NCBI GenBank assembly: GCA_026397335.1
Contig: JAPLVB010000048.1
Location: 136-64,135 of the forward strand
Source: Candidatus Aenigmatarchaeota archaeon
Lineage (GTDB): Archaea; Aenigmatarchaeota; Aenigmatarchaeia; QMZP01
DNA length: 64,000 nt
Reading direction: 5' to 3'
Positions 803 to 57,650 of the stretch are shown one piece after another. The notes below the pieces were generated by a model, which was not told where the DNA came from, searched no databases, and saw only the letters and a program-made list of their open reading frames with translations. A program made the translations under genes and the position numbers. How positions within the stretch are numbered: position 1 is the first letter of the stretch; every line of letters starts with the position of its first letter.

Positions 803-906
803 TCTCAGATGGACGGCCTTATCCCATTGCCTCAAGCCGTCAGTCAAGAAATCCATATAATATATTTACATGGGCCGCTCTTATATTATTCGAGGACACT
901 TAGAAA

Positions 907-928
907 GAAGGCGTCTCTTGACGCCTTC
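907..928. repeat. GAAG-hairpin repeat copy R1: GAAGGCGTC-TCTT-GACGCCTTC (perfect 9-bp stem)
   Basis: Seen directly. Abuts the ftsY stop codon and is preceded by agaaa. Confidence 0.8.
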
Positions 929-2042
929 ACTCCAGGAGTTCTTTCACGAACTTCCTGGGCTCGAACATCTCTATGCTTTTGTAATCCTGTCCTGTCCCGA
1001 GGAAAAGTATGGGCTTCTTTATTGCGTAAGAGACCGAGAGGATAGCTCCTCCCTTCTTGTTCACGTCTATTTTTGTAAGAACTATCGCGTCCACCCCAGC
1101 CGCTTTGTCAAAGGTTTTTGCCTGCTCCACCGCGTCATTCCCTGTGAGGGAGTCCACAACCAGAACCCTGAGGTCAGGCTTGTTAACCCTCACGACTTTT
1201 GCAAGCTCGTCCATCAGGTTCTTGTCCGTGTGCGAGCGGCCTGCTGTGTCAGCAAGGACTATGTCATATCCCTTGGTTTTTGCGAACTTAACAGCATCAA
1301 AAACCACTGCAGCGGAATCAGCCCCATACTGGTGCTTGATAACCTTCACCCCGAGCTTCTCCCCGTGCACCTCGAGCTGCTCTATGGAGGCTGCGCGGAA
1401 TGTGTCAGCTGCGGCTATAACAGGGGTGAAACCCCTGGATTTGAGGTAGTGAGCCAACTTAGCGATTGAAGTGGTTTTTCCGGAGCCGTTAAAGCCCAAA
1501 AAAATCATGCATGCAGGCCTCCCCTCCGAGCGGGACTTCTTTATTATATCTTCTATATTAACAGCGCCTTGGTTAACAACATCATAGAGGCTGTCCTCAA
1601 ACGCCTCCTTGACCAAATCCTTTACCCCTAACCTTTTCGCCTGCTTCTGGGCAAGGTTCTCCTTCAACCTCTGCTTCAGGAAGTCCACAACCTCCATCGC
1701 GACATTCGCCTCGAGCATTCCATTCTCCGTCTCGGAGAAGAACTCCTCTATATCCGAATCCGAGAGAGCACGGGCGGTGACCCTTTCCCTCACCCGCCCA
1801 AGCAGACCGGGTTTTTTGCGGGATTCTGCTTCACGGGGCTCTTGAGGAATCTCCAAAACAGGATCCCGCTTTTCAGCAGGCTTGGGTCTCTGAAATTGTT
1901 TTTTCTCTCTGACTTCAGGCCTTTCAACCTCTGGCACAGTAAGCTCTTCCTTGGAAGGCTCCTGTTCTGCTTTTTTGGTCAGCTTCTCCACGGAGTCCTT
2001 GAGCTTTTTTTTCAGAAAGTCAAACATGCACTCGCCTTCCAT
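927..2042 (-). CDS. ftsY: Signal recognition particle receptor FtsY
   Basis: SRP GTPase motifs GFNGSGKTTS, DTAGR and TKIDV, preceded by an N-terminal acidic/lysine-rich region. Confidence 0.9.
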   Translation of the reverse strand: MEGECMFDFLKKKLKDSVEKLTKKAEQEPSKEELTVPEVERPEVREKKQFQRPKPAEKRDPVLEIPQEPREAESRKKPGLLGRVRERVTARALSDSDIEEFFSETENGMLEANVAMEVVDFLKQRLKENLAQKQAKRLGVKDLVKEAFEDSLYDVVNQGAVNIEDIIKKSRSEGRPACMIFLGFNGSGKTTSIAKLAHYLKSRGFTPVIAAADTFRAASIEQLEVHGEKLGVKVIKHQYGADSAAVVFDAVKFAKTKGYDIVLADTAGRSHTDKNLMDELAKVVRVNKPDLRVLVVDSLTGNDAVEQAKTFDKAAGVDAIVLTKIDVNKKGGAILSVSYAIKKPILFLGTGQDYKSIEMFEPRKFVKELLE

Positions 2043-5278: not shown

Positions 5279-5350
5279 TGATTCACTTAATAAATGTGCG
5301 GGAATTTGTACCGTTATAAAATATAAATGCATAAACTAGATTATTAGAAG

Positions 5351-5388
5351 GAAGGTGGTTGTAATTAGTTGGTTAGGAACCACCTTCA
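5351..5388. repeat. GAAG-hairpin repeat copy R2: GAAGGTGGTT-N18-AACCACCTTC followed by aattag
   Basis: Seen directly; ends 19 nt upstream of the gatD ATG. Confidence 0.7.
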
Positions 5389-5407
5389 ATTAGACATCGT
5401 GAATGGA

Positions 5408-9833: not shown

Positions 9834-10856
9834 CTAATTTTCCTTCCTGGCTGCAGCCCACTGGACCAGGGAGCGGACGAAATCCTGGTATGTTTTCCCC
9901 GTGGCGAAGAAGGAGCGCATGAATCCTGCCTTGGGGGAGATGTCCGGGTTCGCGTTCACTTCCAGGACGTGCGGCCTTCCATTTGAGTCAAGCCTGAAGT
10001 CAACCCTCGCATAGTCCCTGAAGCGGAATATTTCAGCGCACTTTATTGCAGTTCTCTTTATCTTTTCCTCGAGATTCTTTTCAATCTCCGCGGGGCATTT
10101 CACAGGGGTGTTTTTGTATTCCTCGCTATCCTCCAGCCATTTCGCATTGTAATCCGTGATTTTTGGCTTACCTTCAGGGAAGTTCTCAAAAACTATTTCG
10201 GATATAGGGAGAATCTCGATTTCGGGATAGTTGCCGAAGAGGGAAACGTGGAACTCGCGGCCTTCGAGATACTCCTCCACGAGCGCGGGCTGCTTGAATT
10301 TGTCCAGAACGAAAGCGACCCTTTTTTCAAGATCCTCTTTGCTGTTCACAACAGCTCCGGAGTCTATCCCGAAGCTCCCGTCCTCATTATTTGGCTTCAC
10401 AATCGCGGGAAATTTGAGCGGGTAGGATATTTTTTGGGAGGAGTGGTAAATCCGGTATCTTGGAGTTGGTATGCCCTCCCTGACAAGTATGTGCTTCGTC
10501 TTCTGCTTGTCATTCGTCATTATCAGGCCGAATATGTCAGAGCCTGTATAAGGAATGTTCAGAAGGTTGAGGATAGCGGGGATGTTTATCTCGTTCTGGC
10601 TGTTCCCGTTTATGTCCTCACAGACGTTGAAGACCATGTCCACGCCGGAATTCTTTACGCGGCTGAAGAATCGCCCAATCGAATATTTCTGGTCCGAGCC
10701 GTTCAGCTCAAGCGGGATTATAACAGGCTCATGACCGAGCGATCTGATGGATTTCCTGAGAGAATTAACATCGTTCTTTATTCCTTCAATTGCGAGAACA
10801 TCATGTTCTGTTCTGCACTTCTTCCCCCCCTTGTCATAAATTATTCCGACTCTCAT
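9834..10856 (-). CDS. ATP-grasp enzyme of the D-alanine--D-alanine ligase family
   Basis: Ddl-like layout: N-terminal domain, then an ATP-grasp core with an EEYLEGREF-type motif and RVDFRLDSNGRPHVLEVNANP. Confidence 0.65.
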   Translation of the reverse strand: MRVGIIYDKGGKKCRTEHDVLAIEGIKNDVNSLRKSIRSLGHEPVIIPLELNGSDQKYSIGRFFSRVKNSGVDMVFNVCEDINGNSQNEINIPAILNLLNIPYTGSDIFGLIMTNDKQKTKHILVREGIPTPRYRIYHSSQKISYPLKFPAIVKPNNEDGSFGIDSGAVVNSKEDLEKRVAFVLDKFKQPALVEEYLEGREFHVSLFGNYPEIEILPISEIVFENFPEGKPKITDYNAKWLEDSEEYKNTPVKCPAEIEKNLEEKIKRTAIKCAEIFRFRDYARVDFRLDSNGRPHVLEVNANPDISPKAGFMRSFFATGKTYQDFVRSLVQWAAARKEN

Positions 10857-12002: not shown

Positions 12003-14279
12003 ATGCGGTCGGGTGGAGGTATGGATAATACGCAAATCAAGGTTGATGAGCCTAGGAAGAATGAATGCGAAGCTTACCGGGTAGTTTTGCTGGACGGGGA
12101 GAGGAAAAAAGGCGAGATCAAAGACGTCAGGATTGTAAGGCTGGGCGGCCCAGAAAATAGGTATGTGAAAAGGGAGCCAGGGAAGGACAAATCGGCGGAA
12201 GGCGCTGCGCAGCGCCTTCAATCGAAGGTCGCGGTTCCTGAAATTCCAAGGGCAGCGGCTGTATCCAAAAAAAAGGGCGGCGTGCGGGTAATAGATTTGA
12301 AGAAGGCTTCCGAGAAGGAGGCCGAGAAGGCGAAAGCGAAAGCGGATTCTAAGGCAGAGGAAGAGAAGCGTCTCAGGCGCGATTTGAACAATTCCATAGC
12401 AGAGGGCTCATTCACAACCGCATCAAGCAGCATAGTAAGCTCCTACTCAACCCCCTTTGCGCTGGCGCTTAATGCCTCCAACTCTGAAATCGGGATTCTG
12501 AATTCCGTCCAGAACCTTGCCGGAATTCTTTCGCAGCTTCCTGGCGCAAGGCTCACAAAAAGCATGACCAGGAAAAAAATCTGGGTAATGTGCACCATCC
12601 TTTCCAGGCTGTTCCTGATACCGCTTATATTCATAGGGCTCTTCGCACCTTCCACAGAGATATGGCTGCTGATAATTCTCCTTGGGATGGTTGGCTTCTT
12701 TAGCAGCATGAGAGGGCCCGCATGGTCAAGCATGATGGGCGACCTCGTGCCTGTGGAAAGGAGAGGAAGATACTTCGGCAAAAGGAACATGATAATAGGG
12801 TTTGCAGGCATGGTTGCCACGCTTGGGGCAGGAGCTGCCGTATTCTACTTTGGGTTTCCTGTGATTTTTGGAATAGCCGTTGTCCTCACTTTCATATCCA
12901 TAATATTCTTTTTGCGCATAAGAGAACCAGAACTTAAACAGGAGAGAGAATATCACTACAGGCTGCATTTCCACCCGAGCGATTTAATCTACCAGATAAA
13001 GACGAACAGAAATTTCGCAATCTTCACCATCTACATGACTGTGGTGAACTTTGGTGTCAATATAGCGTCACCCTTTGCTGCTGTATATATGCTCAAGAAC
13101 CTGGATATAGGTTACGCATGGTTTGCAGTGCTGGTTACAATAGGCGCTCTGGCCCAGCTGCTTTCAATGAAATACTGGGGAAACAGGTGCGACAATTACG
13201 GGAACCGCAAGATCCTTGTGATATCCGGAATCCTGATATGCTTCGTTCCCCTAGGCTACATGCTTTCCACGAATGTTTTCCATCTTATACTCCTGAAGGT
13301 ATATGACGGGTTCGTATGGGGCGCTTTCGACCTGGTGGTGTTCAACTACCTGCTTGCCGTCACGCCTTCAGAGAAGAGGCCCGGATTCGTGGCAAACCAC
13401 AATTTCATTACAGGTGCGGGAACTGTCACAGGGGCGTTATTCGGGGCATTCCTGGCCCAGCAGTTCGAAACAAGCAGCTTCATGCTGTTCTATGGCCTCC
13501 AGCTGGTATTCCTGATATCCTTCATCCTCAGGCTAAGCTCCATATCCTTCCTGTCCAGGATAGCAGAGGTGGAGAAGAAGGAGAGCGAGCGCATTCCTGT
13601 GAGATATGTGTTCTGGGACACGGTTGCAATAGGCCCTGCAAAGGGAGTGGAGCATGCCGTGAGCAGCGCCTTCCGCTACCCTTACGGGGTTAAGATTAAA
13701 AGCAAGCTCGGACTAAATAATAACAGAAAAATAAAGCTCTCAACAAAAAAATTTGAGTCAGGGAACTCGCAAAAGCAGCGAATGAAGGTGAACGAAAGAA
13801 AGAAGGTGGAACTGGAGAACGAGACACCTTCAGGCAATAAGCCACCTTCAATCACAAATCACGTTCCAGCGAAGGTGTTTGATCATATAGGTGTCCTTCC
13901 GGTTAAAAAGCAAAAGATTGCGGGCGGATTCAGTCAAGAAAATGGGGTGTTTGAAATGGTATTAGGCAATAGGCAAAAACAGAAATCTGATGATAGAAGC
14001 GAATATGTTGAGCTTGGACTTGAGAGGCAGGCTCCCAAAACAGCGAAGATAGTGGTTCACCATCTCCAGAGGTTCTCGGAGACGGACAAGATTGTGAAGA
14101 GTATCCGCGCGAAAAACATTGTTTTCGTGGGGCTCAAGACCATGAAGCAGACCAATCTGGACGAGCTCAAGCAGGCAGTCGCAAAGATAAACAGGGCATG
14201 CATAGAGAACGGCTCGAACCTTTCGCTCGTGGAGGAGGAGTGGCTGATAATCACGCCTCAGACGGCGGCGATTGTTTAA
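12003..14279 (+). CDS. Fusion ORF joining a multi-pass (about 10-12 TM) transporter-like membrane domain to a SepF-like (DUF552) cell-division domain. The N-terminal ~187 codons are doubtful and a plausible alternative start is at 12564.
   Basis: The TM-rich core carries a GDLVPVERRGRYFG segment that resembles an MFS loop 2-3 motif, but this is weak. The last ~80 aa (KIVVHHLQRFSETDKIVKSIRAKNIVFVGL...WLIITPQTAAI) match the SepF core pattern. The linker at 13784-13855 contains a degenerate repeat copy. An in-frame ATG at 13782 could start a stand-alone 166-aa SepF if an unseen frameshift or stop exists. Confidence 0.5.
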   Translation: MRSGGGMDNTQIKVDEPRKNECEAYRVVLLDGERKKGEIKDVRIVRLGGPENRYVKREPGKDKSAEGAAQRLQSKVAVPEIPRAAAVSKKKGGVRVIDLKKASEKEAEKAKAKADSKAEEEKRLRRDLNNSIAEGSFTTASSSIVSSYSTPFALALNASNSEIGILNSVQNLAGILSQLPGARLTKSMTRKKIWVMCTILSRLFLIPLIFIGLFAPSTEIWLLIILLGMVGFFSSMRGPAWSSMMGDLVPVERRGRYFGKRNMIIGFAGMVATLGAGAAVFYFGFPVIFGIAVVLTFISIIFFLRIREPELKQEREYHYRLHFHPSDLIYQIKTNRNFAIFTIYMTVVNFGVNIASPFAAVYMLKNLDIGYAWFAVLVTIGALAQLLSMKYWGNRCDNYGNRKILVISGILICFVPLGYMLSTNVFHLILLKVYDGFVWGAFDLVVFNYLLAVTPSEKRPGFVANHNFITGAGTVTGALFGAFLAQQFETSSFMLFYGLQLVFLISFILRLSSISFLSRIAEVEKKESERIPVRYVFWDTVAIGPAKGVEHAVSSAFRYPYGVKIKSKLGLNNNRKIKLSTKKFESGNSQKQRMKVNERKKVELENETPSGNKPPSITNHVPAKVFDHIGVLPVKKQKIAGGFSQENGVFEMVLGNRQKQKSDDRSEYVELGLERQAPKTAKIVVHHLQRFSETDKIVKSIRAKNIVFVGLKTMKQTNLDELKQAVAKINRACIENGSNLSLVEEEWLIITPQTAAIV
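12198..12219. repeat. Repeat copy R6: GAAGGCGCTG-CG-CAGCGCCTTC (perfect 22-nt palindrome) followed by aatcg
   Basis: Seen directly. It lies inside the annotated N-terminal extension of the ORF at 12003-14279. Confidence 0.75.
13784..13855. repeat. Degenerate repeat copy R7 inside the transporter-SepF linker: gaaggtgaacgaaagaaagaaGGTGG...CACCTTC...ccaccttcaatca
   Basis: Near-identical to 24904-24950 (gaaggcgaacgaaagaaagaaggtgcacagcaccttcaatcg). Confidence 0.6.
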
Positions 14280-14690: not shown

Positions 14691-14713
14691 CTATTTAATT
14701 AATGGAGGCATCC

Positions 14714-15028
14714 ATGAAAAGCAAAGACAAGCTTTATCTTGACAGGGCCTCAATTCTTTCGGTCCTGAAGCAGAACAGGGATATCCTGAGGCAGTTCGGC
14801 CTCAAAAGGATAGGCCTCTTTGGATCCTACCTGAAAGGGGAGAGCAATCCGGACAGCGACATCGACTTCATTGTGGCGTTCAACAAAACCACGTTTGACA
14901 ATTACATGGATCTGAAATTCGCTCTGGAAAGGATTTTCAAGAGAAAGGTGGATCTTGTTATTGAGGGCAGCCTAAAGCCCGCCTTAAAGCATGTGAAAAA
15001 GGAAGCGGCCTATGCCAAAGGAATATAG
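14714..15028 (+). CDS. Minimal nucleotidyltransferase (MNT) of an MNT/HEPN toxin-antitoxin pair
   Basis: GLFGSYLKGESNPDSDIDFIV (GS-x9-DxD Pol-beta NTase motif). Confidence 0.8.
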   Translation: MKSKDKLYLDRASILSVLKQNRDILRQFGLKRIGLFGSYLKGESNPDSDIDFIVAFNKTTFDNYMDLKFALERIFKRKVDLVIEGSLKPALKHVKKEAAYAKGI

Positions 15029-15350
15029 GATCTACCTGGAAGACATACTGAGCTGCATTGGCAATATAGAAGAGTATTCAAAAGGGCTCTCATTCTCACA
15101 GTTCAGCAAAGACCAGATGAGGATAGATGCCGTGATAAGAAACCTGGAGATAATAGGGGAGGCTGTAAAGAAGCTTCCGGACGAATTCAGAAAGGATTAT
15201 CGCGATGTCGAGTGGGCCAAGATATCCGGCCTTAGGGACATACTGATACACGAGTATTTCGGCGTGAACCTGGAAATCATATGGGATGTTGTCTCAAACA
15301 AGATTCCAGACCTCAAGAAGAGCGTGAAGAAGATAATGACAGAGATCTGA
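15012..15350 (+). CDS. HEPN-domain protein (DUF86), partner of the upstream MNT
   Basis: RDILIHEY (R-x4-H HEPN motif). Overlaps the MNT gene. Confidence 0.8.
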   Translation: MPKEYRIYLEDILSCIGNIEEYSKGLSFSQFSKDQMRIDAVIRNLEIIGEAVKKLPDEFRKDYRDVEWAKISGLRDILIHEYFGVNLEIIWDVVSNKIPDLKKSVKKIMTEI

Positions 15351-16039: not shown

Positions 16040-16435
16040 TTGACAGTTAGCGGTGAACTTATGTCAGAATTCAAACTTGTGGAAAAGCCTGAATGGGGAA
16101 CGCTGGCGACATTCATACCAAACAAGGAGGAACCTGTTTACAACTGGATTTATTACAAGGAGGGTTTCGCGAGGGAACTTGTGTTCAGGCTTGCAGAGAT
16201 GTTCTCGCTCAGAAAGGGTATGCACGTGCTGGACCCGTTCTGCGGGGTAGGGACAACCCTTCTCGCGTGCAAGCAGCTGGGCCTGGATTCATTCGGATTT
16301 GATGTGCACCCTGTGAGTGTCTTTTCCTCAAAGGTCAAGATCAGGGATTATGAGACTAGCGTTCTAAGGAGCGAGATAAAGTCCCTTATCAAGGCAAAAT
16401 TCGTCCCAGGGATTTCCTTCTGCTTGGGCTCATGA
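16040..16435 (+). CDS. SAM-dependent amino-methyltransferase, N-terminal part carrying motif I
   Basis: DPFCGVGTT (FxGxGTT SAM-binding motif I). Confidence 0.5.
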   Translation: MTVSGELMSEFKLVEKPEWGTLATFIPNKEEPVYNWIYYKEGFARELVFRLAEMFSLRKGMHVLDPFCGVGTTLLACKQLGLDSFGFDVHPVSVFSSKVKIRDYETSVLRSEIKSLIKAKFVPGISFCLGS

Positions 16436-17109
16436 ATGTGGCTGTCAAATGCAGCTATGCATACAAGGACGGGGCCGTGATAAAGGTGAGAAAGAAGCCG
16501 GTCCCTCCTATAAGAGACATGCTAAGAAGGCAGCTTTTCCATATGGTGAAAGATATTGAGAACTTCAAGTCTGAGAAGTGCGAGACCTTTGCTGATTTCG
16601 GGGATGCGCGCTCTCTTGCGCTCGAATCCGAGAAGATAGATTGCGTGATAACCTCCCCTCCTTACCTTAACAAAATAGAATATACAAAGGTTTATGAGAT
16701 AGAGCAGGAGCTTTTCCTGAACCGCATACAGGAGAGGCCGGCCATCCGCTCTTATATAGGCCTCTCTCTCCAGAGGCTTGAGAAGAACTCCTTGGGCCTT
16801 GAGAAAGCGCTTGATTATGGAACAGTGAGAAGCCTGCCGCCGGAATCAGTACCTTACCTGATGGACATGTTCCAGGCAATAGAGGAGATGTACAGGGTGT
16901 GCAGGAAGGGAGCGAAAATTGGGATTGTCGTAGGTAATGGATGCTTCCCGACAGGAGTGGTAGACTCGGACATACTCCTGAGCAGGATGGCTGAAAGCAT
17001 TGGCTTTACAGTCCAGAAAATCCTTGTCCTGAACAAGCGCTGGTGCACAAGGAACCGGACGGAGAAGATTGGAATAACAAGAGAAAGTCTTCTTCTGTGG
17101 GAGAAATAG
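16432..17109 (+). CDS. SAM-dependent amino-methyltransferase, C-terminal part carrying motif IV
   Basis: VITSPPYLN ((S/D/N)PPY catalytic motif IV). The ATGA overlap with the upstream ORF is in a different frame. Confidence 0.5.
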   Translation: MNVAVKCSYAYKDGAVIKVRKKPVPPIRDMLRRQLFHMVKDIENFKSEKCETFADFGDARSLALESEKIDCVITSPPYLNKIEYTKVYEIEQELFLNRIQERPAIRSYIGLSLQRLEKNSLGLEKALDYGTVRSLPPESVPYLMDMFQAIEEMYRVCRKGAKIGIVVGNGCFPTGVVDSDILLSRMAESIGFTVQKILVLNKRWCTRNRTEKIGITRESLLLWEK

Positions 17110-18481: not shown

Positions 18482-18832
18482 TCATCTCTTACTATCCAAA
18501 TCCCTTTTCAGTTTTAGCATACTGTCTTTCAATTCCGGTATGTCCCTTTGGACAACTTTCCATGTAAGTTCCAAATCAACTCCAAAATACTCGTGTATGA
18601 GGATATCTCTCATACCCGCAATCTCTTTCCATGCAATATCTGGATATTTGTTTTTTATTTCCTTTGGTATATTTTTAACCGCTTCGCCTATAATTTCAAT
18701 TCTTCTTATGACAGCATCCTGTACCTGTTCCGATTCTAAAAAACCATCCTTTGTTATTCCCTTTGTATATTCCTCAATTTTTTCTATGCATTCCAGCATA
18801 TGCTCTATGAAAACTTTCGGATCCTTTTTCAC
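18482..18832 (-). CDS. HEPN-domain protein (DUF86), paralog of the gene at 15012-15350
   Basis: [15 protein letters not shown]; about 50% identity to HEPN copy 1. Confidence 0.8.
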
Positions 18833-19116
18833 ATAATCACTTCCTGCTCGCCAAGAATCCTGTCCCTAAGAAGCGGATGCAGAGAATTATATGTAAGCAC
18901 ATCTACCTCCCTCTTCAGAACCCCCTCAAGCGTTATCTTGAGGCCTGCGAGGTCAAGGAGGCTTTTCTCGCCCCTGAACTCCACAAGCAGGTCTATATCG
19001 CTGCCTTTTTTATTCTCCCCTCTTGCGAATGACCCGAATATCGCTGCCCTTTTGACACCATAACGCTTCAGGACTGGAAGGATCTTTTTCCTTATTTCCT
19101 TATTGTCTTTTTTCAT
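18829..19116 (-). CDS. Minimal nucleotidyltransferase, partner of the HEPN protein
   Basis: [20 protein letters not shown]; its stop overlaps the HEPN start by 4 nt. Confidence 0.8.
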
Positions 19117-22824: not shown

Positions 22825-22855
22825 TGTTTGCACCGCTCAAAATTTCTTTTTGCTC

Positions 22856-22874
22856 GAAGGCGTGAAACACCTTC
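22856..22874. repeat. Repeat copy R8: GAAGGCG-TGAAA-CACCTTC (loop as in R4; one C.A / G.U position)
   Basis: Seen directly; lies 31 nt upstream of the V-PPase ATG on the minus strand. Confidence 0.7.
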
Positions 22875-23077
22875 TTTCCAAGCTTTGGGTTAAAATTGGA
22901 GGTTAGGCTTATAAAAGTTACGGCAGGGGACGGATTCTTAAACAGATTTCTTCCTTGCGTTCCAGTAGACAAAGCTCCCCAGAATTAGAATCATGAGTAA
23001 AGAGAGCCCGTAAAATACAGGTGGGTTCGCAATGAGCATCCCCACAAGGTCTGTTTCTCCTGCCATGGGAATCACAA

Positions 23078-23324: not shown

Positions 23325-24584
23325 CTATCTCTCCAATATGAAATACTTCCTGTGCTTCTCCACTTCCGGAATCTCTGCCAGCATCATCTCGCTTGATTTG
23401 CCCACTCCCATAACCGTGAGTTCCTGCATTTTTTTCAGGGCACGCTCGAGCTTGTAATCCTTCTCAGCGAAAATCTCGAACATGGTCTCTCCCTTCTTCA
23501 CGTGGTCCCCGGATTTTTTGTGGAACAGTATGCCTGCACCCTTATCCTTCGGGGCTCCCGCTTCCCTTGCGACCTGTATAACTGCGGTGTTGTTTATCCA
23601 GAGCACATGACCGGAGACTTTGGATTTTACCTGGTCAACGATTTTTCCCAGAGGTATATCCTCGGGCTTTATTTTCGGATTACCACCCTGCGCTTCTATA
23701 ATCTGCCTGAACTTCTTCTCAGCCTTCCCTGACGTGATTATGTGCTTGGCCTTCTCATAGCCATTCCTCATTCCCGCAAACTTGAAGAGGACAGCCGCCA
23801 AGTCGCAGACCTTGTCCAGCTGGTCCTGAGGTGTCCTGTGTCCAGAAAGAATCTGCAAGGCCTCCCTTGCTTCCAGAGCAGGCCCTACCCCGTAGCCTAC
23901 AGGCTGCTCACCAAATGTGGACAAACATTCAACCTTTATCCCGAGCTTCTTTCCGAGCTCTATGAATTGGTTCCCAAGCTCTTTCGCTTCGCCTATTGTC
24001 CTTATCTTCACTCCCTTTCCTGTTGGTATGTCTATCACGAGATATTTTGAGCCCATGGCCTTCTTCTTTGACATCACGGAAGGAAGGAGCATCGGGTCTA
24101 TGGAAAGAGGGTGCTCTATCTCTATGAATATGTCATCCGCCGGGGCGAGGTCAAGCGCGCCTCCCCACACCAGGCATGCATTAGTCTTCTTCACGACCTT
24201 CTTTATTTCTTCCAGCGTCAGACTCACGGGGCAGATGCACTCCATCTTGTCAGCTGTTCCTGCGGGAGCAGTTATCGCGCGGGATGAGGTTTTTGGGATA
24301 GTCAGGCCCGCTGCGGCGACTGTTGGAACAAGAATCATGGAAGTCTTGTCTCCCGGAATTCCCCCAATGCCGCACAGTCTCTCTTCCACGCAGCCGTAAA
24401 GCCCTATCTGTCCGGGCTGGATAAACCTTTCGGTTATGTTAACGATTGCGATTTCCCTTTTCCTGTTGTATGAAAGCTCCACCCTGTCCAGCGCCTTGAC
24501 ATCCAGCTCGTCTGCATCCTCCCTGTTGAGAATGACTATGGGCTTTTTGGCTTCCACATAAAGGGGCTTTGCTTTCAGCAGCAT
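23325..24584 (-). CDS. Thymidine phosphorylase family protein (probable archaeal AMP phosphorylase)
   Basis: TSSRAITAPAGTADKME and GDKTSMILVPTVAAAGL match the TP/AMPpase core. Confidence 0.7.
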   Translation of the reverse strand: MLLKAKPLYVEAKKPIVILNREDADELDVKALDRVELSYNRKREIAIVNITERFIQPGQIGLYGCVEERLCGIGGIPGDKTSMILVPTVAAAGLTIPKTSSRAITAPAGTADKMECICPVSLTLEEIKKVVKKTNACLVWGGALDLAPADDIFIEIEHPLSIDPMLLPSVMSKKKAMGSKYLVIDIPTGKGVKIRTIGEAKELGNQFIELGKKLGIKVECLSTFGEQPVGYGVGPALEAREALQILSGHRTPQDQLDKVCDLAAVLFKFAGMRNGYEKAKHIITSGKAEKKFRQIIEAQGGNPKIKPEDIPLGKIVDQVKSKVSGHVLWINNTAVIQVAREAGAPKDKGAGILFHKKSGDHVKKGETMFEIFAEKDYKLERALKKMQELTVMGVGKSSEMMLAEIPEVEKHRKYFILER

Positions 24585-24661
24585 TTTTTCACGGCTCGCT
24601 TGTATAATTAATTTGTAATATTATATGGGTTAGGCCTAATTTAAAGGTTCGAAAATGGAAA

Positions 24662-24682
24662 GAAGTCGGCTCTGCCGGCTTC
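24662..24682. repeat. Repeat copy R9: GAAGTCGGC-TCT-GCCGGCTTC followed by aatcgaaattcg
   Basis: Seen directly; one U.G position. Confidence 0.7.
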
Positions 24683-24822
24683 AATCGAAATTCGTAACCG
24701 ATAGGAGTCAGCCATGAAAATATGTTTTTGTGTAACCGACAAGGAGTTAAATCACATCAAAAACCAGTATGGGCCAAAACATTTATATACCCTTGTGCTA
24801 TAATTATATTAAATAAATTTTT

Positions 24823-24894
24823 AGCGACTGAGCGATTGAAGTCGGCTTCGCCGACTTCGGTCTAAATTCCGGATTCAACAGTCGCTTCAATCGA
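24823..24894. repeat. Nested repeat copy R10: outer AGCGACTG/CAGTCGCT and CGATTGAAG/CTTCAATCG arms enclosing GAAGTCGGC-TTC-GCCGACTTC
   Basis: Seen directly; the outer arms are perfect reverse complements. Confidence 0.8.
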
Positions 24895-24903
24895 AAAAAG
24901 TGA

Positions 24904-24957
24904 GAAGGCGAACGAAAGAAAGAAGGTGCACAGCACCTTCAATCGAGAATCGCCTTC
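24904..24957. repeat. Nested repeat copy R11: outer GAAGGCG...CGCCTTC enclosing GAAGGTGC-ACA-GCACCTTC, with aatcg following both
   Basis: Seen directly; ends 22 nt upstream of the MC1 ATG. Confidence 0.8.
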
Positions 24958-24979
24958 AATCTAAACGCGAGGTGTAAAA

Positions 24980-25288
24980 ATGGCGAAAAAGAGAAGGGCT
25001 TCCTCAAAGAAGTACTACGTTCTCAAAAGCGGAAGGAAAGTCTCAATCTTCACAGGAAGACAGCCAAGGCAGGCTGCTTTGAAGGCAGCAACCAGGGGAT
25101 TCACAGACATAAGATTGAGGGAAAGAGGACGCAAGAACAAAGACAGGACATATACAGTCCATGTTTTCCAGGGATCAAGGAAGAAGGTCAGCCTTCCAGC
25201 ATCAAGCAAGGTTGACTGGCTGCCAGCACAGGTCTGGAAACCGACTGTGAAGAAAGTCCGAGTTGAAAGACTGAAAACAATAAGATAA
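24980..25288 (+). CDS. Chromosomal protein MC1 family
   Basis: FTGRQPRQAALKAATRG...IRLRERG...VHVF aligns closely with the Methanosarcina MC1 core (FTGKQPRQAALKAANRG...IRLRERGTKKVHVF). Confidence 0.85.
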   Translation: MAKKRRASSKKYYVLKSGRKVSIFTGRQPRQAALKAATRGFTDIRLRERGRKNKDRTYTVHVFQGSRKKVSLPASSKVDWLPAQVWKPTVKKVRVERLKTIR

Positions 25289-28078: not shown

Positions 28079-28132
28079 ATATAGTATTTAATTCACTGAA
28101 GAATAATAAGAACCTTTGCCAAAGGTGCACTT

Positions 28133-28729
28133 ATGGATATGTACTTCGACATAGAGGTCGCTTACACAGACCCTAAATATTTGGAACTTATGAAGCTTGG
28201 GAGGAAGACCCCTGACCCGCACCCTAGCAACTGCAAGATAATCACGATACAATACCAGCTGCTCAAGGATGACGGGACGCCTAAAGGCCCCTTGAGAATA
28301 TTCAGGGAGTGGGATTCTTCTGAGGAGCAGATTATCAGGAAGATTGCGACCATGATACATCCCCAGAGGAAATGGGAGTTCATACCAGTGGGCCACAACA
28401 TCTATTTTGACCTTGGGATGCTTAGGGAGAGGGCCTCCCTTTACGGGATAAACTACCCTGCCTGGTTTATCTACAATGACCTGCCGAGCATAGACATCAA
28501 GCACATATGCGTGGGAATGAACGCATTCAAGCTCAAGGATTCGGGGCTGGACAAGTTCTCAGGAAAGGAGACAAGCGGATTGAACGTGCCTGTATGGTAT
28601 CAAGAGAAAGAGTATGGCAAGATAATAGATTACATAGAGAAAGAGGCGAAAGAGTTTATAGAATTCTACAGGAAACTGAAGGAGACGCTTCCTCTATTTC
28701 GCCAGCAGCATGGATTTTGTAAGGATTGA
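28133..28729 (+). CDS. Predicted 3-prime-5-prime exonuclease with the DEDD/RNase-H-like fold
   Basis: YFDIEV (Exo I DxE), IPVGHNIYFDLGML (Exo II) and YGKIIDY (Exo III Y-x3-D). Confidence 0.5.
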   Translation: MDMYFDIEVAYTDPKYLELMKLGRKTPDPHPSNCKIITIQYQLLKDDGTPKGPLRIFREWDSSEEQIIRKIATMIHPQRKWEFIPVGHNIYFDLGMLRERASLYGINYPAWFIYNDLPSIDIKHICVGMNAFKLKDSGLDKFSGKETSGLNVPVWYQEKEYGKIIDYIEKEAKEFIEFYRKLKETLPLFRQQHGFCKD

Positions 28730-29162
28730 CATGCCCCAGATATTTGTCTATTTCTTTGCTTGTTTTATCCATCTTGGCTTTTAGTATGTTCATAACATCT
28801 TTTGTTTCTTTGGGAGAAAACCCAGCTTCTGTAGCATCGGAAATATTCCTTTCTATGAATAAAATATCGCTTGCAGCTTTCCAAAAACGTCTTTTTTCTA
28901 GGTCTTCCTGTGCACACTCCAATTGTTCTTTGTAAAAGCCCTTCTTGTCGCAATATGCTTTAATAGAGTCAAGCATCCCAAGACCTAACAGCTTTCTATA
29001 AAATTCAGACGACTCGTCTTTGTCAGGATGGCATACATATTTTACAAACCTGCTTGTAAGACCAAGGGCTCCATATTCACCTGAAAGTATAGAGTTTAGA
29101 ATTTCCTTTGCAATAACCCCTTCAAAGAAGGTATTGTAAAATTGGGAATCCAATCCTTCCAT
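28656..29162 (-). CDS. Hypothetical protein (start set at MEGLDSQ to avoid overlapping the upstream gene)
   Basis: ORF only; its 3-prime end overlaps the exonuclease gene antisense by about 74 nt. Confidence 0.3.
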   Translation of the reverse strand: MEGLDSQFYNTFFEGVIAKEILNSILSGEYGALGLTSRFVKYVCHPDKDESSEFYRKLLGLGMLDSIKAYCDKKGFYKEQLECAQEDLEKRRFWKAASDILFIERNISDATEAGFSPKETKDVMNILKAKMDKTSKEIDKYLGHVNPYKIHAAGEIEEASPSVSCRIL

Positions 29163-29167
29163 AATAC

Positions 29168-29554
29168 TCACTTTCTTTCGTATATTTCCAGTTCGTGCGG
29201 TCTTGTTTGCTTGGCGCCCAAAATAGTATTCATTGCCCTCAACCCGTTCAATCTCTCTGTCAATTGCCTGCATACATAGGCGGCTCCGTCAGCTGTTTCT
29301 TCCTCATCGTTTGGGAGCGTTACAGGGCCTTGAATACTCGTTTTGCTATGAGAATCGAGTTCAAATATCATGACATAATCAGTGTCAGTGCCGTGGGGAA
29401 CCTCACTTTCAACTATCAAGGTCCCCTTGATATACAATTCTAATTTCGGTCTGTACATTCTTTCAAGATTGGTTAATTCCACTGTCTGCTCAAAGCATTC
29501 GTCCCTGAAATCCTTCTTAATTTTAGGAACCCTATTCTTTATCATATTTACCAC
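29168..29554 (-). CDS. Hypothetical protein
   Basis: ORF only. Confidence 0.35.
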   Translation of the reverse strand: MVNMIKNRVPKIKKDFRDECFEQTVELTNLERMYRPKLELYIKGTLIVESEVPHGTDTDYVMIFELDSHSKTSIQGPVTLPNDEEETADGAAYVCRQLTERLNGLRAMNTILGAKQTRPHELEIYERK

Positions 29555-29902
29555 TTATTGATGGTTACTTTATTCCTTTATAAAGCTTTCTCCAAGGGAA
29601 TCCTCACTTCCCTCTTTTGCCTTGGGTAAATCCTTATTAAAATGCTTACCATTGGGGGCAGCTTTTTGCCGTTCCTATAGACAAATCCCTCAAAATCGCT
29701 ATCTATCACCTCTATTTTGTCTCAAGAGAAGCTTCCCTTCCACTAAGGGGTCAAATTTCAGGGAACCCTCACTCTAGTGTCTAAAAGTCATTTTATAAAA
29801 TATATTATATAAAGAATATTTATAAAAATATAATATAAAATAGATATTTTTGAATAGTATATATTTTATAGATATAATTAAAAATGGTTAAAATAAAATA
29901 TA

Positions 29903-30478
29903 TTATTTAAAATCTATATTTCTGAAGGCTTTCTCTACATACATGCTGTTTTTTCTAATCTGGAAAGACTGATGAAATCCGAAAAATGAGTCCCATGATA
30001 CCGATTTAGTTACAGTGAAAAATCTATAATTCTCTCCTTCCGGTTGGATAATCCACAAAGAAGTTTTCGGGCTTTCAAGATAGTCGATGGCTTTCCTTAT
30101 AGCGCATGGACCGCATTCCAAGGTTATTGTTTCTTCTCCCTTCTTTGCAAGAACATCTGGTATGCCTCCCATAAAACCGCATTCTATTGACGCTATTCTA
30201 TATCCCAAGTCTTTAAGCAATCTGATGCCGAATGCCTTCATCTCCTTCTGAGGACCCCGGATTCCTCCTATCTTTACAGGAGTCTTTTTGAGCGTTTTCT
30301 TTCTGATGAAGATCGCTTTGTTGTCCAGAAAACCAGCAACTATAACCGCATATTCGCTACTTGTATATCTGATATTGCCTTGTGTGAAAATATCATTTAT
30401 CCTATCAATTGTTTCGAATTTTGTCTTGTAGGTCTTTATGAGGGAGACATATCTCTCCGCTTCAGTTGTCATGCACAA
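29903..30478 (-). CDS. Hypothetical protein with a weak PD-(D/E)xK-like motif
   Basis: GGIPDVLAKKGEETITLECG resembles a restriction-endonuclease-fold PD...ExK with the Lys replaced; speculative. Confidence 0.3.
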   Translation of the reverse strand: MCMTTEAERYVSLIKTYKTKFETIDRINDIFTQGNIRYTSSEYAVIVAGFLDNKAIFIRKKTLKKTPVKIGGIRGPQKEMKAFGIRLLKDLGYRIASIECGFMGGIPDVLAKKGEETITLECGPCAIRKAIDYLESPKTSLWIIQPEGENYRFFTVTKSVSWDSFFGFHQSFQIRKNSMYVEKAFRNIDFK

Positions 30479-30485
30479 ACCTCTT

Positions 30486-31064
30486 TCAGAACAAATCGCC
30501 CATTATCTTCTCATAGCTTTTCTGCACGGAATCCATGCTAGGCGTTCCATAAACGTCTATGGTTGTCTTTATGGAAGAATGTCCGAGTATCTTTTGGACC
30601 TCCTCCATCCTCATCCCTTTCTCCAGCATCATCCTGGCGAAGGAGTGCCTGAAAAGATGAGGATTGATGCATTTCTTGGCAGGGTTTGGGTGATTTACCC
30701 CAGCTCTTTGGCCGCATTTTGCCACTATTTCATTGATTTGCTTAAGGGAAATGGTGCTCTGCTTGTTGCTTATTATGAGCTTGCCGGATGACCTGTCCCC
30801 TAGATAGAACTTAATATCCTGAAGGGTATCGGAATCTACAGGCACAGTCCTGCTTTTGTCTCCTTTGCCGCTCCTTATGTATATCCTTTTCTTTCCGAAA
30901 TCGACATCCTTTATGGTGAGATCCCGGAGCTCGAACCTTCTCATTCCTGTCCTGGCAAGTATCTTTATTATAACCCTATCCCTGAGGGAAGAAGCACACA
31001 AGATAATTTTCCCTATGTCTTCCTTTGCCAAATAATAGAAAGACTCCTTTGCAGCTTCTGACAT
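30486..31064 (-). CDS. Tyrosine recombinase/integrase, short catalytic-domain-only form of about 192 aa
   Basis: ARTGMRRFEL (box I Arg), KGDKSRTVP (Lys), HLFRHSFA (H-x-x-R) and LGHSSIKTTIDVYG (His...Tyr nucleophile). No N-terminal core-binding domain. Confidence 0.8.
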   Translation of the reverse strand: MSEAAKESFYYLAKEDIGKIILCASSLRDRVIIKILARTGMRRFELRDLTIKDVDFGKKRIYIRSGKGDKSRTVPVDSDTLQDIKFYLGDRSSGKLIISNKQSTISLKQINEIVAKCGQRAGVNHPNPAKKCINPHLFRHSFARMMLEKGMRMEEVQKILGHSSIKTTIDVYGTPSMDSVQKSYEKIMGDLF

Positions 31065-31259
31065 GTATTAAATTACGTTACACTTATTTATAAAGGTTAC
31101 GTTTTAGTTACACTTTATAAATTAATGTTACATATAAAGTTACAAAATATACATTCTGTAACGTTTTCTATAGAGAACATCTTTTGGAAGGTACTCAATA
31201 ATCAGGAGGCTAGCTTCCTAAGCTAAACTACCCCAGAAAACGCGATTTGCTCTTGGAAC

Positions 31260-31631
31260 CTAAGCGGCGACTTTCTTCTCTTCCTTTCCGGGCTTTGGCT
31301 GCTTCTTCTTATCTTCCTTTGCTGCGTTCTCCTCTATCTGGGAGAACTTCTTTATCATTGCCTCCACATTATGCGCTATGTCCCAGCCGTCATCCGTGAG
31401 TATGACCTTCTTTATGCGGCCCTGCTTATCGAATTTAACTATGCCCAGGTTCCTGAAAGCGTTTAGGATCTTTATTGTGTGCGAATACGTACAATCAGAT
31501 TCCTTGGCCAGAATAGTCGCATAAACGGGCTTATCCTTGCCGGTTTTCAGGCCCATGAGAATCCTTGCCGGCTTCTCCCTAAGAAACAAATCCTCTAACA
31601 TCCGGTTTTGTGGCATAGTTCTCATCTTCAA
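31260..31631 (-). CDS. Winged-helix DNA-binding protein with a lysine-rich C-terminus
   Basis: wHTH-like segment YATILAKESDCTYSHTIKILNAFRNLGIVKF. Confidence 0.45.
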   Translation of the reverse strand: MKMRTMPQNRMLEDLFLREKPARILMGLKTGKDKPVYATILAKESDCTYSHTIKILNAFRNLGIVKFDKQGRIKKVILTDDGWDIAHNVEAMIKKFSQIEENAAKEDKKKQPKPGKEEKKVAA

Positions 31632-31945
31632 TTTTCACAATAATTTTATGTATTTGTATTATATAAATGTTTCGTTTCTTATTTCATATAATATAGTTTA
31701 TAAAGTATTCTTTATTTATAATATAATAAAATAGATATTATATAAAATAGTTATTTAATTAGAATTATTAAAATATAGTTATTTTAATATATATTATTAA
31801 GTAGTATATTTTTAATCCTCACGGCCAAAGTGAGAGTTCCTTCCAAGAATGGCCCAATAAGGTGAGAGAGATGTTTCACGAGAGAATAGGGTCAATACAT
31901 ATCGGTTTATATAATAATCTCCCTAAGGGCGTAGATTCTAGGATA

Positions 31946-33621: not shown

Positions 33622-33770
33622 TGGGGCCATCGAGATTTGAACTCGAGTCTAGAGCTGATTTGCGAAAGAAGTCGGAATTGCGTTAGAAGGTGCTCATGCG
33701 CCTTCATTCTCACGTTCCGACTTCAAACGTCCCGAAGCTCTGATGCTAGACCAAACTACACCATGGCCCC
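33622..33770 (-). tRNA. tRNA-Pro(CGG) with a 74-nt intron at the canonical 37/38 position. Exons are 33731-33770 and 33622-33656; the intron is 33657-33730. CCA is not encoded.
   Basis: Hand-folded. Acceptor GGGGCCA/TGGCCCC (7 bp) with discriminator A. T-arm TCGAG-TTCAAAT-CTCGA. Anticodon stem AGAGC/GCTCT with loop TTCGGGA (U33, anticodon CGG, G37). The D-arm is imperfect (GUGU/GCAU with wobbles). The 5-prime half resembles archaeal tRNA-Pro (GGGGCC.TGG.GTAG..TGGTCTA). Confidence 0.65.
33669..33724. repeat. Nested repeat copy R12 forming the tRNA-Pro intron: outer GAAGTCGGA/TCCGACTTC enclosing GAAGGTGC-TCAT-GCGCCTTC
   Basis: Seen directly; flanked by cgaaa and aaacg. Confidence 0.8.
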
Positions 33771-33781
33771 GATTCACGAAA

Positions 33782-33803
33782 GAAGGTGTCTCTTGACACC
33801 TTC
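33782..33803. repeat. Repeat copy R13: GAAGGTGTC-TCTT-GACACCTTC (same loop as R1; one compensatory C-G to T-A change)
   Basis: Seen directly; 11 nt upstream of the tRNA 5-prime end and preceded by cgaaa. Confidence 0.8.
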
Positions 33804-33818
33804 ATTTTAAGGTTCGAA

Positions 33819-56918: not shown

Positions 56919-56959
56919 GCTTTCACCTTTTGACTTGCAATATATATGACAATACCAAT

Positions 56960-56980
56960 GAAGTAGGCTACGCCTACTTC
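56960..56980. repeat. Repeat copy R16: GAAGTAGGC-TAC-GCCTACTTC
   Basis: Seen directly; 41 nt upstream of the S28e ATG on the minus strand. Confidence 0.75.
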
Positions 56981-57046
56981 GCGTAAGGCTTTCGCCTCAC
57001 AACACTTAATTATTTGAAATTTTAACTTTTCGACTTAACGGAGAAG

Positions 57047-57104
57047 GATTCTGGAGTGAAGGCGAATTTGAGTTGGAAGTCGGCTATGCCGACTTCGTTC
57101 TTTC
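57047..57104. repeat. Nested repeat copy R14: outer GAAGGCG/CGCCTTC enclosing GAAGTCGGC-TAT-GCCGACTTC
   Basis: Seen directly; lies between the S28e and L7Ae genes. Confidence 0.8.
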
Positions 57105-57164
57105 GAACGCCTTCTTTCTAAGTTCCTGCGCCTACTTTAAATAAGATTTGTGTTTTGCAAATCC

Positions 57165-57527
57165 TTATTTCATGAGCGACTTGACTTTCTCCGCAATCTC
57201 GTTCACCAGCTTCTTCGCGTCACCTTCCTGCGCAATTGCGATTGATGAGGTGGGAACGTCTATCCCGCATGCCTTGCCTAGCTCAACCTTTGAAGGCACA
57301 AAAACATACGGCACTTTCTTCTCATCGCATAGAACCGGAAGATGCATAAGGATCTCCGGAGGCGTGACGTCCTCGGCCATTACAACAAGCTTTGCAATTC
57401 CCCTGTCTATCGCCTTGGTGGTCTCGTTTACGCCTTTCTTGATCTTTCCGCTGGATTTCGCGACTGTAACGGCTTCGTAAACCTTTTCCACAAGATCCTT
57501 CGAAACCTTGAATTTCACGAATGTCAT
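57165..57527 (-). CDS. rpl7ae: Ribosomal protein L7Ae (K-turn binding)
   Basis: Full-length match ([28 protein letters not shown]...LP.LC.EK..PY..V.SK..LG.A.GI). GGAGG lies 7 nt upstream of the ATG. Confidence 0.9.
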
Positions 57528-57560
57528 ATCATCCCCTCCTAAAAGGTACGATTTTGGAAA

Positions 57561-57581
57561 GAAGGCGACTTCGTCACCTTC
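57561..57581. repeat. Repeat copy R15: GAAGGCGAC-TTC-GTCACCTTC followed by aaac
   Basis: Seen directly; 33 nt upstream of the L7Ae ATG on the minus strand. Confidence 0.75.
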
Positions 57582-57650
57582 AAACTTTGGACGCCTTTTC
57601 AGGTCTAAGTTTACGATTATATAACTATATTAATATATAAACGTTTGGAT

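Follow-up and report, generated by a model that had tools for sequence, protein, structure and literature searches.

The spacer between the phosphorylase and MC1 genes

We analysed a 64-kb stretch of DNA (hereafter the window) from the metagenome-assembled genome of a Candidatus Aenigmatarchaeota archaeon (DPANN), with a focus on the array of nested hairpins in the 395-bp spacer (24585–24979) in front of the gene for the chromatin protein MC1. As an earlier note on this DNA had described, the spacer separates two divergent genes: a nucleoside/AMP-phosphorylase-like open reading frame (ORF) on the minus strand (23325–24584; domains PF00591 and PF07831) and the MC1 gene on the plus strand (24980–25288), for which 706 homologues were found, all 120 of those listed carrying PF05854. 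The three neighbouring repeats of that note (R9, R10, and R11) resolve into five GC-rich stems within 296 bp, and the two-level nesting it had claimed for R10 and R11 is real in both cases, with outer and inner arms located. The following features make up the array and its surroundings:

24649–24688, plus strand: R9, a single family unit with the layout TCGAAAATGGAAA-GAAGTCGGC-TCT-GCCGGCTTC-AATCGA, upstream of both putative promoters; stem GAAGTCGGC (24662–24670) / GCCGGCTTC (24674–24682), with one T.G pair
24782–24826, plus strand: putative MC1 promoter, with the B recognition element (BRE)/TATA sequence TTTATATA at 24782–24789, then a conserved initially transcribed block
24823–24893, plus strand: R10 outer, first stem-loop of the predicted MC1 leader; stem AGCGACTG (24823–24830) / CAGTCGCT (24879–24886), then the tail TCAATCG
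24834–24867, plus strand: R10 inner, a family unit within the loop of R10 outer, GAAGTCGGC-TTC-GCCGACTTC-GGTCT; stem GAAGTCGGC (24838–24846) / GCCGACTTC (24850–24858)
24897–24961, plus strand: R11, a composite unit; outer stem GAAGGCGA (24904–24911) / TCGCCTTC (24950–24957) around the inner GAAGGTGC-ACA-GCACCTTC-AATCG, with arms at 24922–24929 and 24933–24940
24969–24982, plus strand: Shine-Dalgarno-like GAGGTG (24969–24974) and MC1 ATG (24980–24982), a block conserved in all relatives

Four of the five stems (R9, R10 inner, R11 outer, and R11 inner) are units of one repeat family, while R10 outer is the ancestral stem-loop of the MC1 leader. The motif CTTCAATCG, which the earlier note had counted four times in the spacer, occurs exactly at 24679, 24885, and 24937, each one position from where it had been placed, whereas the supposed fourth copy at 24954 is the variant CTTCAATCT with one mismatch, leaving three exact copies; start-to-start distances are 206, 52, and 17 nt. 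Its reverse complement CGATTGAAG is present as reported but starts at 24833 rather than 24831. By count, with five stems in 296 bp, the spacer is the richest local concentration of the window, although two other clusters (33668–33811 and 56952–57589) are comparably dense. The MC1 promoter block is nearly invariant in an alignment of ten relatives, and both its function as a promoter and a transcription start near 24811 are proposed from the archaeal BRE/TATA consensus.

Spacers of relatives

Orthologous spacers were gathered through phosphorylase and MC1 homologues and through the conserved promoter block (the relatives' loci are labelled L001–L047). Conservation is confined to a few blocks, namely the MC1 BRE/TATA region with the sequence just downstream (24775–24826), the Shine-Dalgarno/start block, two blocks containing GTAACCG, and two AT-rich blocks beside the phosphorylase gene. 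Between promoter and Shine-Dalgarno sequence the length varies by whole hairpins, and the predicted MC1 leaders of nine loci span 59–170 nt with one to five stems (L013, 59 nt; L003, 61; L014, 69; L020, 74; L021, 84; L001, 89; L019, 106; L017, 145; window, 170). The leader of L020, the closest relative in non-coding sequence, differs from that of the window by two blocks: the R10 inner hairpin (~31 nt) and the whole of R11, a 65-nt insertion between CTTCAATCGAAAA and AAACGCGAGG. R10 inner is also absent from L014, L019, L021, and L001, and at the position of R11 there is one family unit in L019 and two in L017. A change of spacer size by whole repeat units across relatives was the check that the earlier note had itself proposed; such expansion and contraction was found, and the alignments show that the relatives differ by the gain and loss of complete units.

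At the position of R9, L014 carries a hairpin with different yet paired stems (GAAATTGGC/GCCAATTTC), and L020 is without the 17-nt 5' arm. Judged by this comparison, R9 is an older family copy, common to L014, in what would be untranscribed DNA between the two putative promoters.

R10 outer stands apart. In each close relative, as in the window, a stem-loop begins ~13 nt into the predicted MC1 leader, with arms AGCGACTG/CAGTCGCT in the window, AGCGGCTG/CAGCCGCT in L020, GGCGGCTG/CAGCCGTC in L021, AGCGACC/GGTCGTT in L001, and GCGGCC/GGCCGC in L003 and L017. Two positions have changed on both sides of the stem (position 5 from A:T to G:C or G.T, position 7 from T:A to C:G), and the loop measures 48 nt in the window against 3–32 nt in the relatives. 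Because the structure is present in all close relatives and shows these paired changes, we read R10 outer as the ancestral stem-loop that opens the MC1 leader, not as a recent family insertion. In bacteria, 5' stem-loops protect mRNAs, and by analogy this one is probably kept for mRNA stability. A tail of the family type, CTTCAAT[C/A]GAAAA, comes after the stem in both the window and L020, so that R10 outer may itself descend from a very old family unit.

Two GTAACCG blocks lie 38 nt apart in the window (24694–24752), 30–90 nt upstream of the MC1 TATA box; they are conserved in relatives and could be transcription-factor sites. A 28-codon ORF overlapping them (ATG at 24715) was considered and rejected: L014 has it open, but in L020 it contains a frameshift and L003, L017, and L021 lack it, and we take the region as conserved non-coding sequence.

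A family of short palindromes

A family unit comprises ~37–45 nt with the layout (TCGA..GGAAA)-GAAG-N4-6-loop-N4-6-CTTC-(AATCGA). The stem base GAAG/CTTC is conserved, the GC-rich core of 4–6 bp is variable but complementary, stems measure 8–10 bp, loops 3–4 nt or sometimes more, and the flanks (5' TCGA..GGAAA, 3' AATCGA) are weakly conserved. Nine of the 11 perfect hairpins in the window (stem ≥8 bp) are of the GAAG...CTTC type, against an expectation of 0.03 from 300 dinucleotide shuffles, none of which gave more than 2. The 9-mer CTTCAATCG shows a similar excess (7 copies against 0.85 expected; none of 100 shuffles reached 7), and six of its seven copies are family units. From 24 aligned units we derived the consensus (G)GAAA-GAAG-K-Y-G-N-C-loop-G-N-C-R-M-CTTC-AATCG. 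The first three pairs of the stem base are invariant and the fourth (G:C) is altered in 2 of the 24 units, while of the seven inner pairs altered in both partners five belong to the stem core; 91.6% of alignment cells are paired, a figure biased upward by the choice of units as hairpins.

A covariance model built from the aligned units (R1) was used to scan the window and the relatives. The window yielded 17 sites; ORFs make up 87% of its sequence, but 15 of the sites lie outside them. R9 was the top match (43.7 bits, E = 4e-9), and R10 inner scored 36.9 and 35.9 bits on the two strands. Among relatives, L045 has 8 sites in 13.6 kb, and L014 and L047, which belong to one contig, have 16 in 24.6 kb. 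Of the 21 sites in L045 and L047, 17 did not go into building the model, among them nine of the 13 in L047; the other four in L047 are L014 sites again, and three of these had served for training. Two sites were detected in L017 and one each in L003, L007, and L020, while none was detected in ~250 kb of more distant Aenigmatarchaeota (L001, L002, L004–L006, L008–L012, L026, and L029–L031), including 21.5 kb of L001 despite its 87% identical phosphorylase. Unit density is ~0.3–0.65 per kb in this genome and a few close Aenigmatarchaeota relatives, and this patchy distribution is as would be expected of a repeat family that expands in bursts. The literature on repetitive extragenic palindromic (REP) sequences, MITEs (miniature inverted-repeat transposable elements), and palindromic repeats in Aenigmatarchaeota or DPANN yielded general surveys only, and no published description of the family.

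Insertions in coding sequence and in hairpin loops

Direct evidence comes from insertions of known direction in a DNA-methylase gene of L014 (436 aa), which contains three in-frame units of 45, 66, and 39 nt without stop codons. In a three-way alignment these are absent at identical boundaries from L045, where the gene is intact (386 aa), and from the window, and the outgroup L006 is also without them; units 1 and 3 share the same start, TCGATGG..GAAGGCGTC. Likewise, a nested composite in a window ORF extends the linker between the major facilitator superfamily (MFS) and SepF domains by 75 nt (25 codons) relative to L014, with the frame open. These alignments show that units can land in protein-coding genes with the frame kept. 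We looked for bulge-helix-bulge mini-introns as an explanation for the coding insertions and the spacer units, and found no such motif, nor any tRNA context for R9–R11; since all coding insertions are multiples of three without stop codons, they fit translation rather than splicing.

The N6/N4 DNA-methylase gene of the window is broken up into a pair of overlapping ORFs (16040–16435 and 16432–17109). It lacks a 178-nt stretch that is present in L014 and largely in L045, and the break falls at the exact site of one of the in-frame units of L014. The MFS transporter and SepF domain form a single ORF (12003–14279), an arrangement also seen in L014, L045, and L047; for SepF there is a separate Shine-Dalgarno-like sequence with an ATG near 13957, and one protein or two are possible.

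A second type of evidence comes from paralogues within the window. The un-nested unit at 899–936 has the same arms and flanks as the outer stem of 57051–57123, which holds a complete unit in its loop: the flanks ACTTAGAAAGAAGGCGT and CGCCTTCACTCCAG are identical to 57123–57107 and 57064–57051, and 898–914 and 922–935 are identical to the two ends of the nested element. The same unit-in-loop layout recurs in R11, at 13784–13847, at 33668–33725, and in R10, where the host stem is not of the family. Given that loops are a tiny share of intergenic DNA, these five cases point to a preference for hairpin tips as apparent insertion sites. Composites can also be copied whole, as shown by R11 and 13784–13847: the 5' half of R11 (24904–24928) is 96% identical to 13784–13808. 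Direct repeats of 14–16 nt surround two insertions and none of the others: R11 (TCGCTTCAATCGAAAA / TCGCCTTCAATCTAAA) and one at the phosphorylase start of L014 (16 nt, CCTTCGCCTTGCGACA).

A tRNA intron and other units

The remaining units of the window are located as follows:

899–936, plus strand: unit over the ftsY stop codon, 38.3 bits, 4-nt loop
3170–3206, plus strand: unit between the glycerol-1-phosphate-dehydrogenase-like and geranylgeranylglyceryl-phosphate-synthase-like genes, 41.1 bits, within an 89-nt segment missing from L047
6785–6864, minus strand: two units between gatD and an HD-domain gene, 31.6 and 31.3 bits; the L047 spacer has no R1 match and does not align with that of the window
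12190–12227, plus strand: unit upstream of the MFS transporter gene, 31.8 bits, with a unit at the corresponding place in L014
13784–13847, plus strand: nested composite in the ORF joining MFS and SepF domains, recognised by R1 and repeat comparison
22848–22882, minus strand: unit in the putative H+-pyrophosphatase leader, 32.9 bits, downstream of a conserved TATA block
33668–33725, minus strand: nested composite in the intron of tRNA-Pro(CGG)
33774–33811, plus strand: unit adjoining the tRNA-Pro gene, 38.2 bits, absent from L003
56952–57123, minus strand: single unit (56952–56988) and nested composite (57051–57123), downstream of the L7Ae gene (Pfam)
57553–57589, plus strand: unit between a PadR-like gene and the L7Ae gene, 37.9 bits

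The tRNA-Pro(CGG) gene (33622–33770, minus strand) has a 74-nt intron at position 37/38, most of which is taken up by the composite. The gene is supported by Rfam RF00005 (41.7 bits, permissive filters) and by ARAGORN with its intron option, and was not detected by default ARAGORN or by Rfam at gathering thresholds; a bulge-helix-bulge can be drawn by hand with one C.A mismatch. The tRNA-Pro intron of L003 has the same two-level layout with different stems. In that locus (~1844–1985) the sequence diverges after the T-loop (TTCAAA|AACCC...), leaving the tRNA 3' end not contiguous, which could reflect a second intron, a split gene, or a pseudogene.

Several other observations concern units or their surroundings. 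A hairpin resembling the family lies just upstream of gatD (5348–5390); its 10-bp stem (GAAGGTGGTT/AACCACCTTC) is perfect, its loop measures 17 nt, it carries a CAAT tail, and its R1 score is weak (15.8 bits). In L014 (9611–9727, also in L015), the phosphorylase leader has an extra segment with a family hairpin, GAAGTTCC-TTCG-GGAACTTC, bounded by the 16-nt direct repeat CCTTCGCCTTGCGACA, which is perfect; at this place L020 contains another unit and the window none. In L047, units at 10163–10217 and 10295–10332 overlap gatE at its 3' end and an IF-2B-family gene over its first 35 codons; the window and L045 have no such gene at that position. The phosphorylase ORF itself has a clean in-frame gap of ~283 nt (~94 codons) at window position 24370/24371 relative to L001, L003, L020, and L021, with loss of the Glycos_trans_3N domain (419 aa against 513 aa in relatives, including the called L014 gene); this may be a true deletion or an assembly error. 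Elsewhere, the window encodes two nucleotidyltransferase/HepT toxin-antitoxin pairs of the MNT-HEPN type (14702–15350, plus strand; 18482–19116, minus strand). The region ~28100–31900, with several ORFs without Pfam match, a tyrosine recombinase, and an AT-rich 10-bp hairpin (31766–31789), aligns in parts with L001 and L003 and may be an integrated element.

Origin and spread of the units

The suggestion of the earlier note that the hairpins belong to a repeat family, possibly a mobile one, gains support from the gain and loss of whole units among relatives and from the in-frame units of the methylase gene. We favour the explanation that the spacer was colonised by a lineage-specific family of mobile mini-palindromes resembling REP sequences, Rickettsia palindromic elements (RPE), or MITEs, and assign it a probability of about 0.7. 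In the MC1 leader, one unit was inserted into the ancestral loop of R10 outer, giving R10 inner, and a ready-made two-unit composite, R11, was inserted just behind R10, both in the lineage of the window only. The units would spread as DNA, probably as hairpins on single-stranded DNA, by means of an enzyme encoded elsewhere in the genome, by analogy with REP sequences and their REP-associated tyrosine transposases (RAYTs) and with IS200/IS605. We infer that the units are essentially selfish. Within the leader they are predicted to add ~45 kcal/mol of RNA structure, while the Shine-Dalgarno-like GAGGTG and the MC1 ATG are largely unpaired in the predicted minimum-energy fold; as the ribosome-binding site would be left free, the effect of the units is presumably tolerated and would amount at most to mRNA stabilisation.

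A number of observations weigh against this explanation. Comparisons of filled and empty sites revealed no consistent target-site duplication or terminal inverted repeat, and no transposase or HUH-type enzyme was recognised by Pfam among the ~80 ORFs of the window, which is only 64 kb of the genome; the sole recombinase is a short tyrosine recombinase (192 aa; 30486–31064) with no adjoining units. Old matching copies keep their stems paired despite differing sequence (R9 and its L014 counterpart; the tRNA intron and that of L003), which would be unexpected for decaying selfish DNA and thus suggests selection on structure or copy-correction. The orientation of units relative to transcription leans toward sense (~12 to 4), a difference that is not significant and depends on our own gene map, and in seven of eight imperfect stems the mismatch would be a G.U pair on the putative transcribed strand; both hint at an RNA-level function. 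When wobble pairs are counted by element orientation, however, the strands are equal (3 to 3), and the G.U counts are too few and too dependent on inference to decide between RNA and DNA. Finally, the MC1 transcription start and leader are themselves inferred, and all relatives are metagenome assemblies.

A more far-reaching version, which we judge less likely than not, is that DPANN archaea harbour still-active mini-palindromes which target hairpin loops without any known type of transposase, whose stems are maintained by copy-correction or selection, and which supply new sequence to tRNA introns, protein linkers, and leaders of highly expressed genes such as MC1.

Alternative explanations

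The array as a whole could instead be a selected cis-regulatory RNA of the MC1 leader, controlling mRNA stability or translation, for example through a structure that binds a protein or is sensitive to temperature. All close relatives do keep the leader's first stem-loop, with compensatory changes, yet R10 inner and R11 are missing from the closest ones, despite MC1 genes and promoters that are otherwise similar. The predicted leader RNA is unusually stable (−61.4 kcal/mol, z = −5.1), R10 inner is lengthened by two G.U pairs on the plus (sense) strand only (GAUUGAAG/CUUCGGUC), and units also occur in the putative H+-pyrophosphatase leader and upstream of the L7Ae gene; the same units, however, are found in untranscribed spacers, antisense to genes, within coding sequence, and in a tRNA intron. 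Nor does any Rfam family match: the whole window had no match at gathering thresholds, and permissive filters yielded only sub-threshold chance matches in the spacer (E at least 0.3). Taken together, we consider a regulatory origin of the whole array unlikely.

Hairpins might also multiply without a dedicated enzyme, if template switching during replication, fold-back synthesis, and ectopic gene conversion created, corrected, and copied quasi-palindromes. Such processes would account for stems that are perfectly paired while their sequence drifts, for the long direct repeats around the R11 and L014 phosphorylase-start insertions, and for the lack of a transposase in the window. What makes this improbable is that copies >30 kb apart share flanks beyond their stems and that independent insertions open with the same TCGATGG..GAAGGCGTC, since copying from a master element fits both better than creation on the spot; in addition, the patchy presence among close relatives resembles the bursts of mobile families.

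By far the weakest alternative, and one we judge very improbable, is that the palindromes act as DNA, extruding cruciforms bound by MC1 in a feedback loop or by some other factor of chromatin or replication: MC1 has a preference for bent DNA and four-way junctions, its gene comes immediately after the cluster, the three spacer blocks fold stably as DNA on either strand (z from −3.0 to −5.7; R11, −15.8 kcal/mol, z = −5.7), and R9 is kept in L014 in apparently untranscribed DNA, but a single short stem suffices in close relatives and the same units are spread across unrelated genes with no specific tie to MC1.

Other identities were rejected on simpler grounds. A CRISPR array does not fit the irregular spacing, the mixed orientations, and stems that differ between copies. 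Transcription terminators do not fit this spacer, where the flanking genes diverge and none ends, and units elsewhere occur in either orientation. As units flank the L7Ae gene, K-turns, in which tandem sheared G.A pairs follow a 3-nt bulge between two helices, were considered, but by eye the consensus and R11 offer no bulge-plus-GA, only a symmetric 2x2 A.A or a 9–10 nt loop. A viral link was not supported either: a search of viral contigs with the family pattern returned 13 contigs with single matches, mostly without a matching stem and none with a second copy.

Comparison with known repeat systems

The family behaves like REP sequences, RPE, or MITEs but fails their defining sequence features. 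Like REP sequences and their REPIN arrangements, its units are short (20–40 nt), GC-rich, imperfect palindromes in many copies, mostly intergenic, with a conserved stem base, frequent clustering, and transcription into stable stem-loops; with 17 sites in 64 kb and all but two of these clear of ORFs, they are short, multicopy, and mostly extragenic palindromes as REP sequences are. The cognate RAYT, a gene for a Y1 HUH transposase, is usually flanked by REP sequences, whereas no RAYT-like gene was found among the ~80 ORFs of the window, which covers only 64 kb for a gene that is typically single-copy. One account of REP sequences describes a further hallmark, a tetranucleotide (GTAG or CGTC) that is conserved at one of the palindrome's ends (PMC3733652). 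The tag here is GAAG/CTTC with an AATCG tail, in which GAA(G) and (C)TTC are invariant, and there is no GTAG or CGTC. In addition, the host is an archaeon, and the units nest in each other's loops and also lie inside genes.

With RPE the family shares palindromic repeats in a small genome and in-frame insertion into protein-coding genes, where the extra peptide is tolerated (the L014 methylase, the MFS-SepF linker). RPE are, however, bacterial, ~100–150 bp long, and without sequence similarity to the present units (37–66 nt; 39–66 nt as coding insertions), so the likeness is one of behaviour only. To our knowledge, the mechanism that mobilises RPE is also unknown. Like MITEs, the units are small and non-autonomous, have the symmetry of inverted repeats, and vary in copy number in a patchy, lineage-specific way. 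Most described MITEs are longer than 37–45 nt, and here the unit is one hairpin without terminal inverted repeats around a core, without consistent target-site duplication, and without a recognisable parent insertion sequence in the window or the relatives' loci. MITE surveys have reported high densities in some DPANN genomes (PMC11602168).

The preference for the loop of an existing palindrome has a parallel in insertion sequences. IS1397 and ISKpn1 are insertion sequences that target REP loops, and ISPpu9 is described in one report as inserting into REP sequences (PMC8450116); all of these are full insertion sequences with a transposase, whereas the DNA inserted here is itself a mini-palindrome. 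Finally, mitochondrial GC clusters and double-hairpin elements are also short, GC-rich hairpin repeats that invade intergenic regions of compact genomes, although they belong to organelles and show no sequence relationship to the present units; how they spread is, as far as we know, likewise unknown. Hairpin elements of that kind have been described in sponge mitochondria (PMC2800124).

Implications for DPANN genomes

DPANN archaea are generally regarded as symbionts, and their genomes are very small and known almost only from metagenomes. If the favoured explanation is true, a family of 40-nt palindromes can reshape the leader of the gene for the main chromatin protein, lengthen enzymes by peptide segments, and occupy a tRNA intron, and these archaea would carry an active repeat system comparable to bacterial REP sequences or RPE. 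The strong preference for hairpin loops would then offer a concrete starting point in the search for whatever enzyme or process mobilises the units. For annotation it would follow that such units can extend ORF calls and hide tRNA genes, as with the tRNA-Pro gene overlooked by two default tools. Should an active, loop-targeting class of mini-palindromes prove true as well, it would represent a so far undescribed route for insertions in tiny archaeal genomes.

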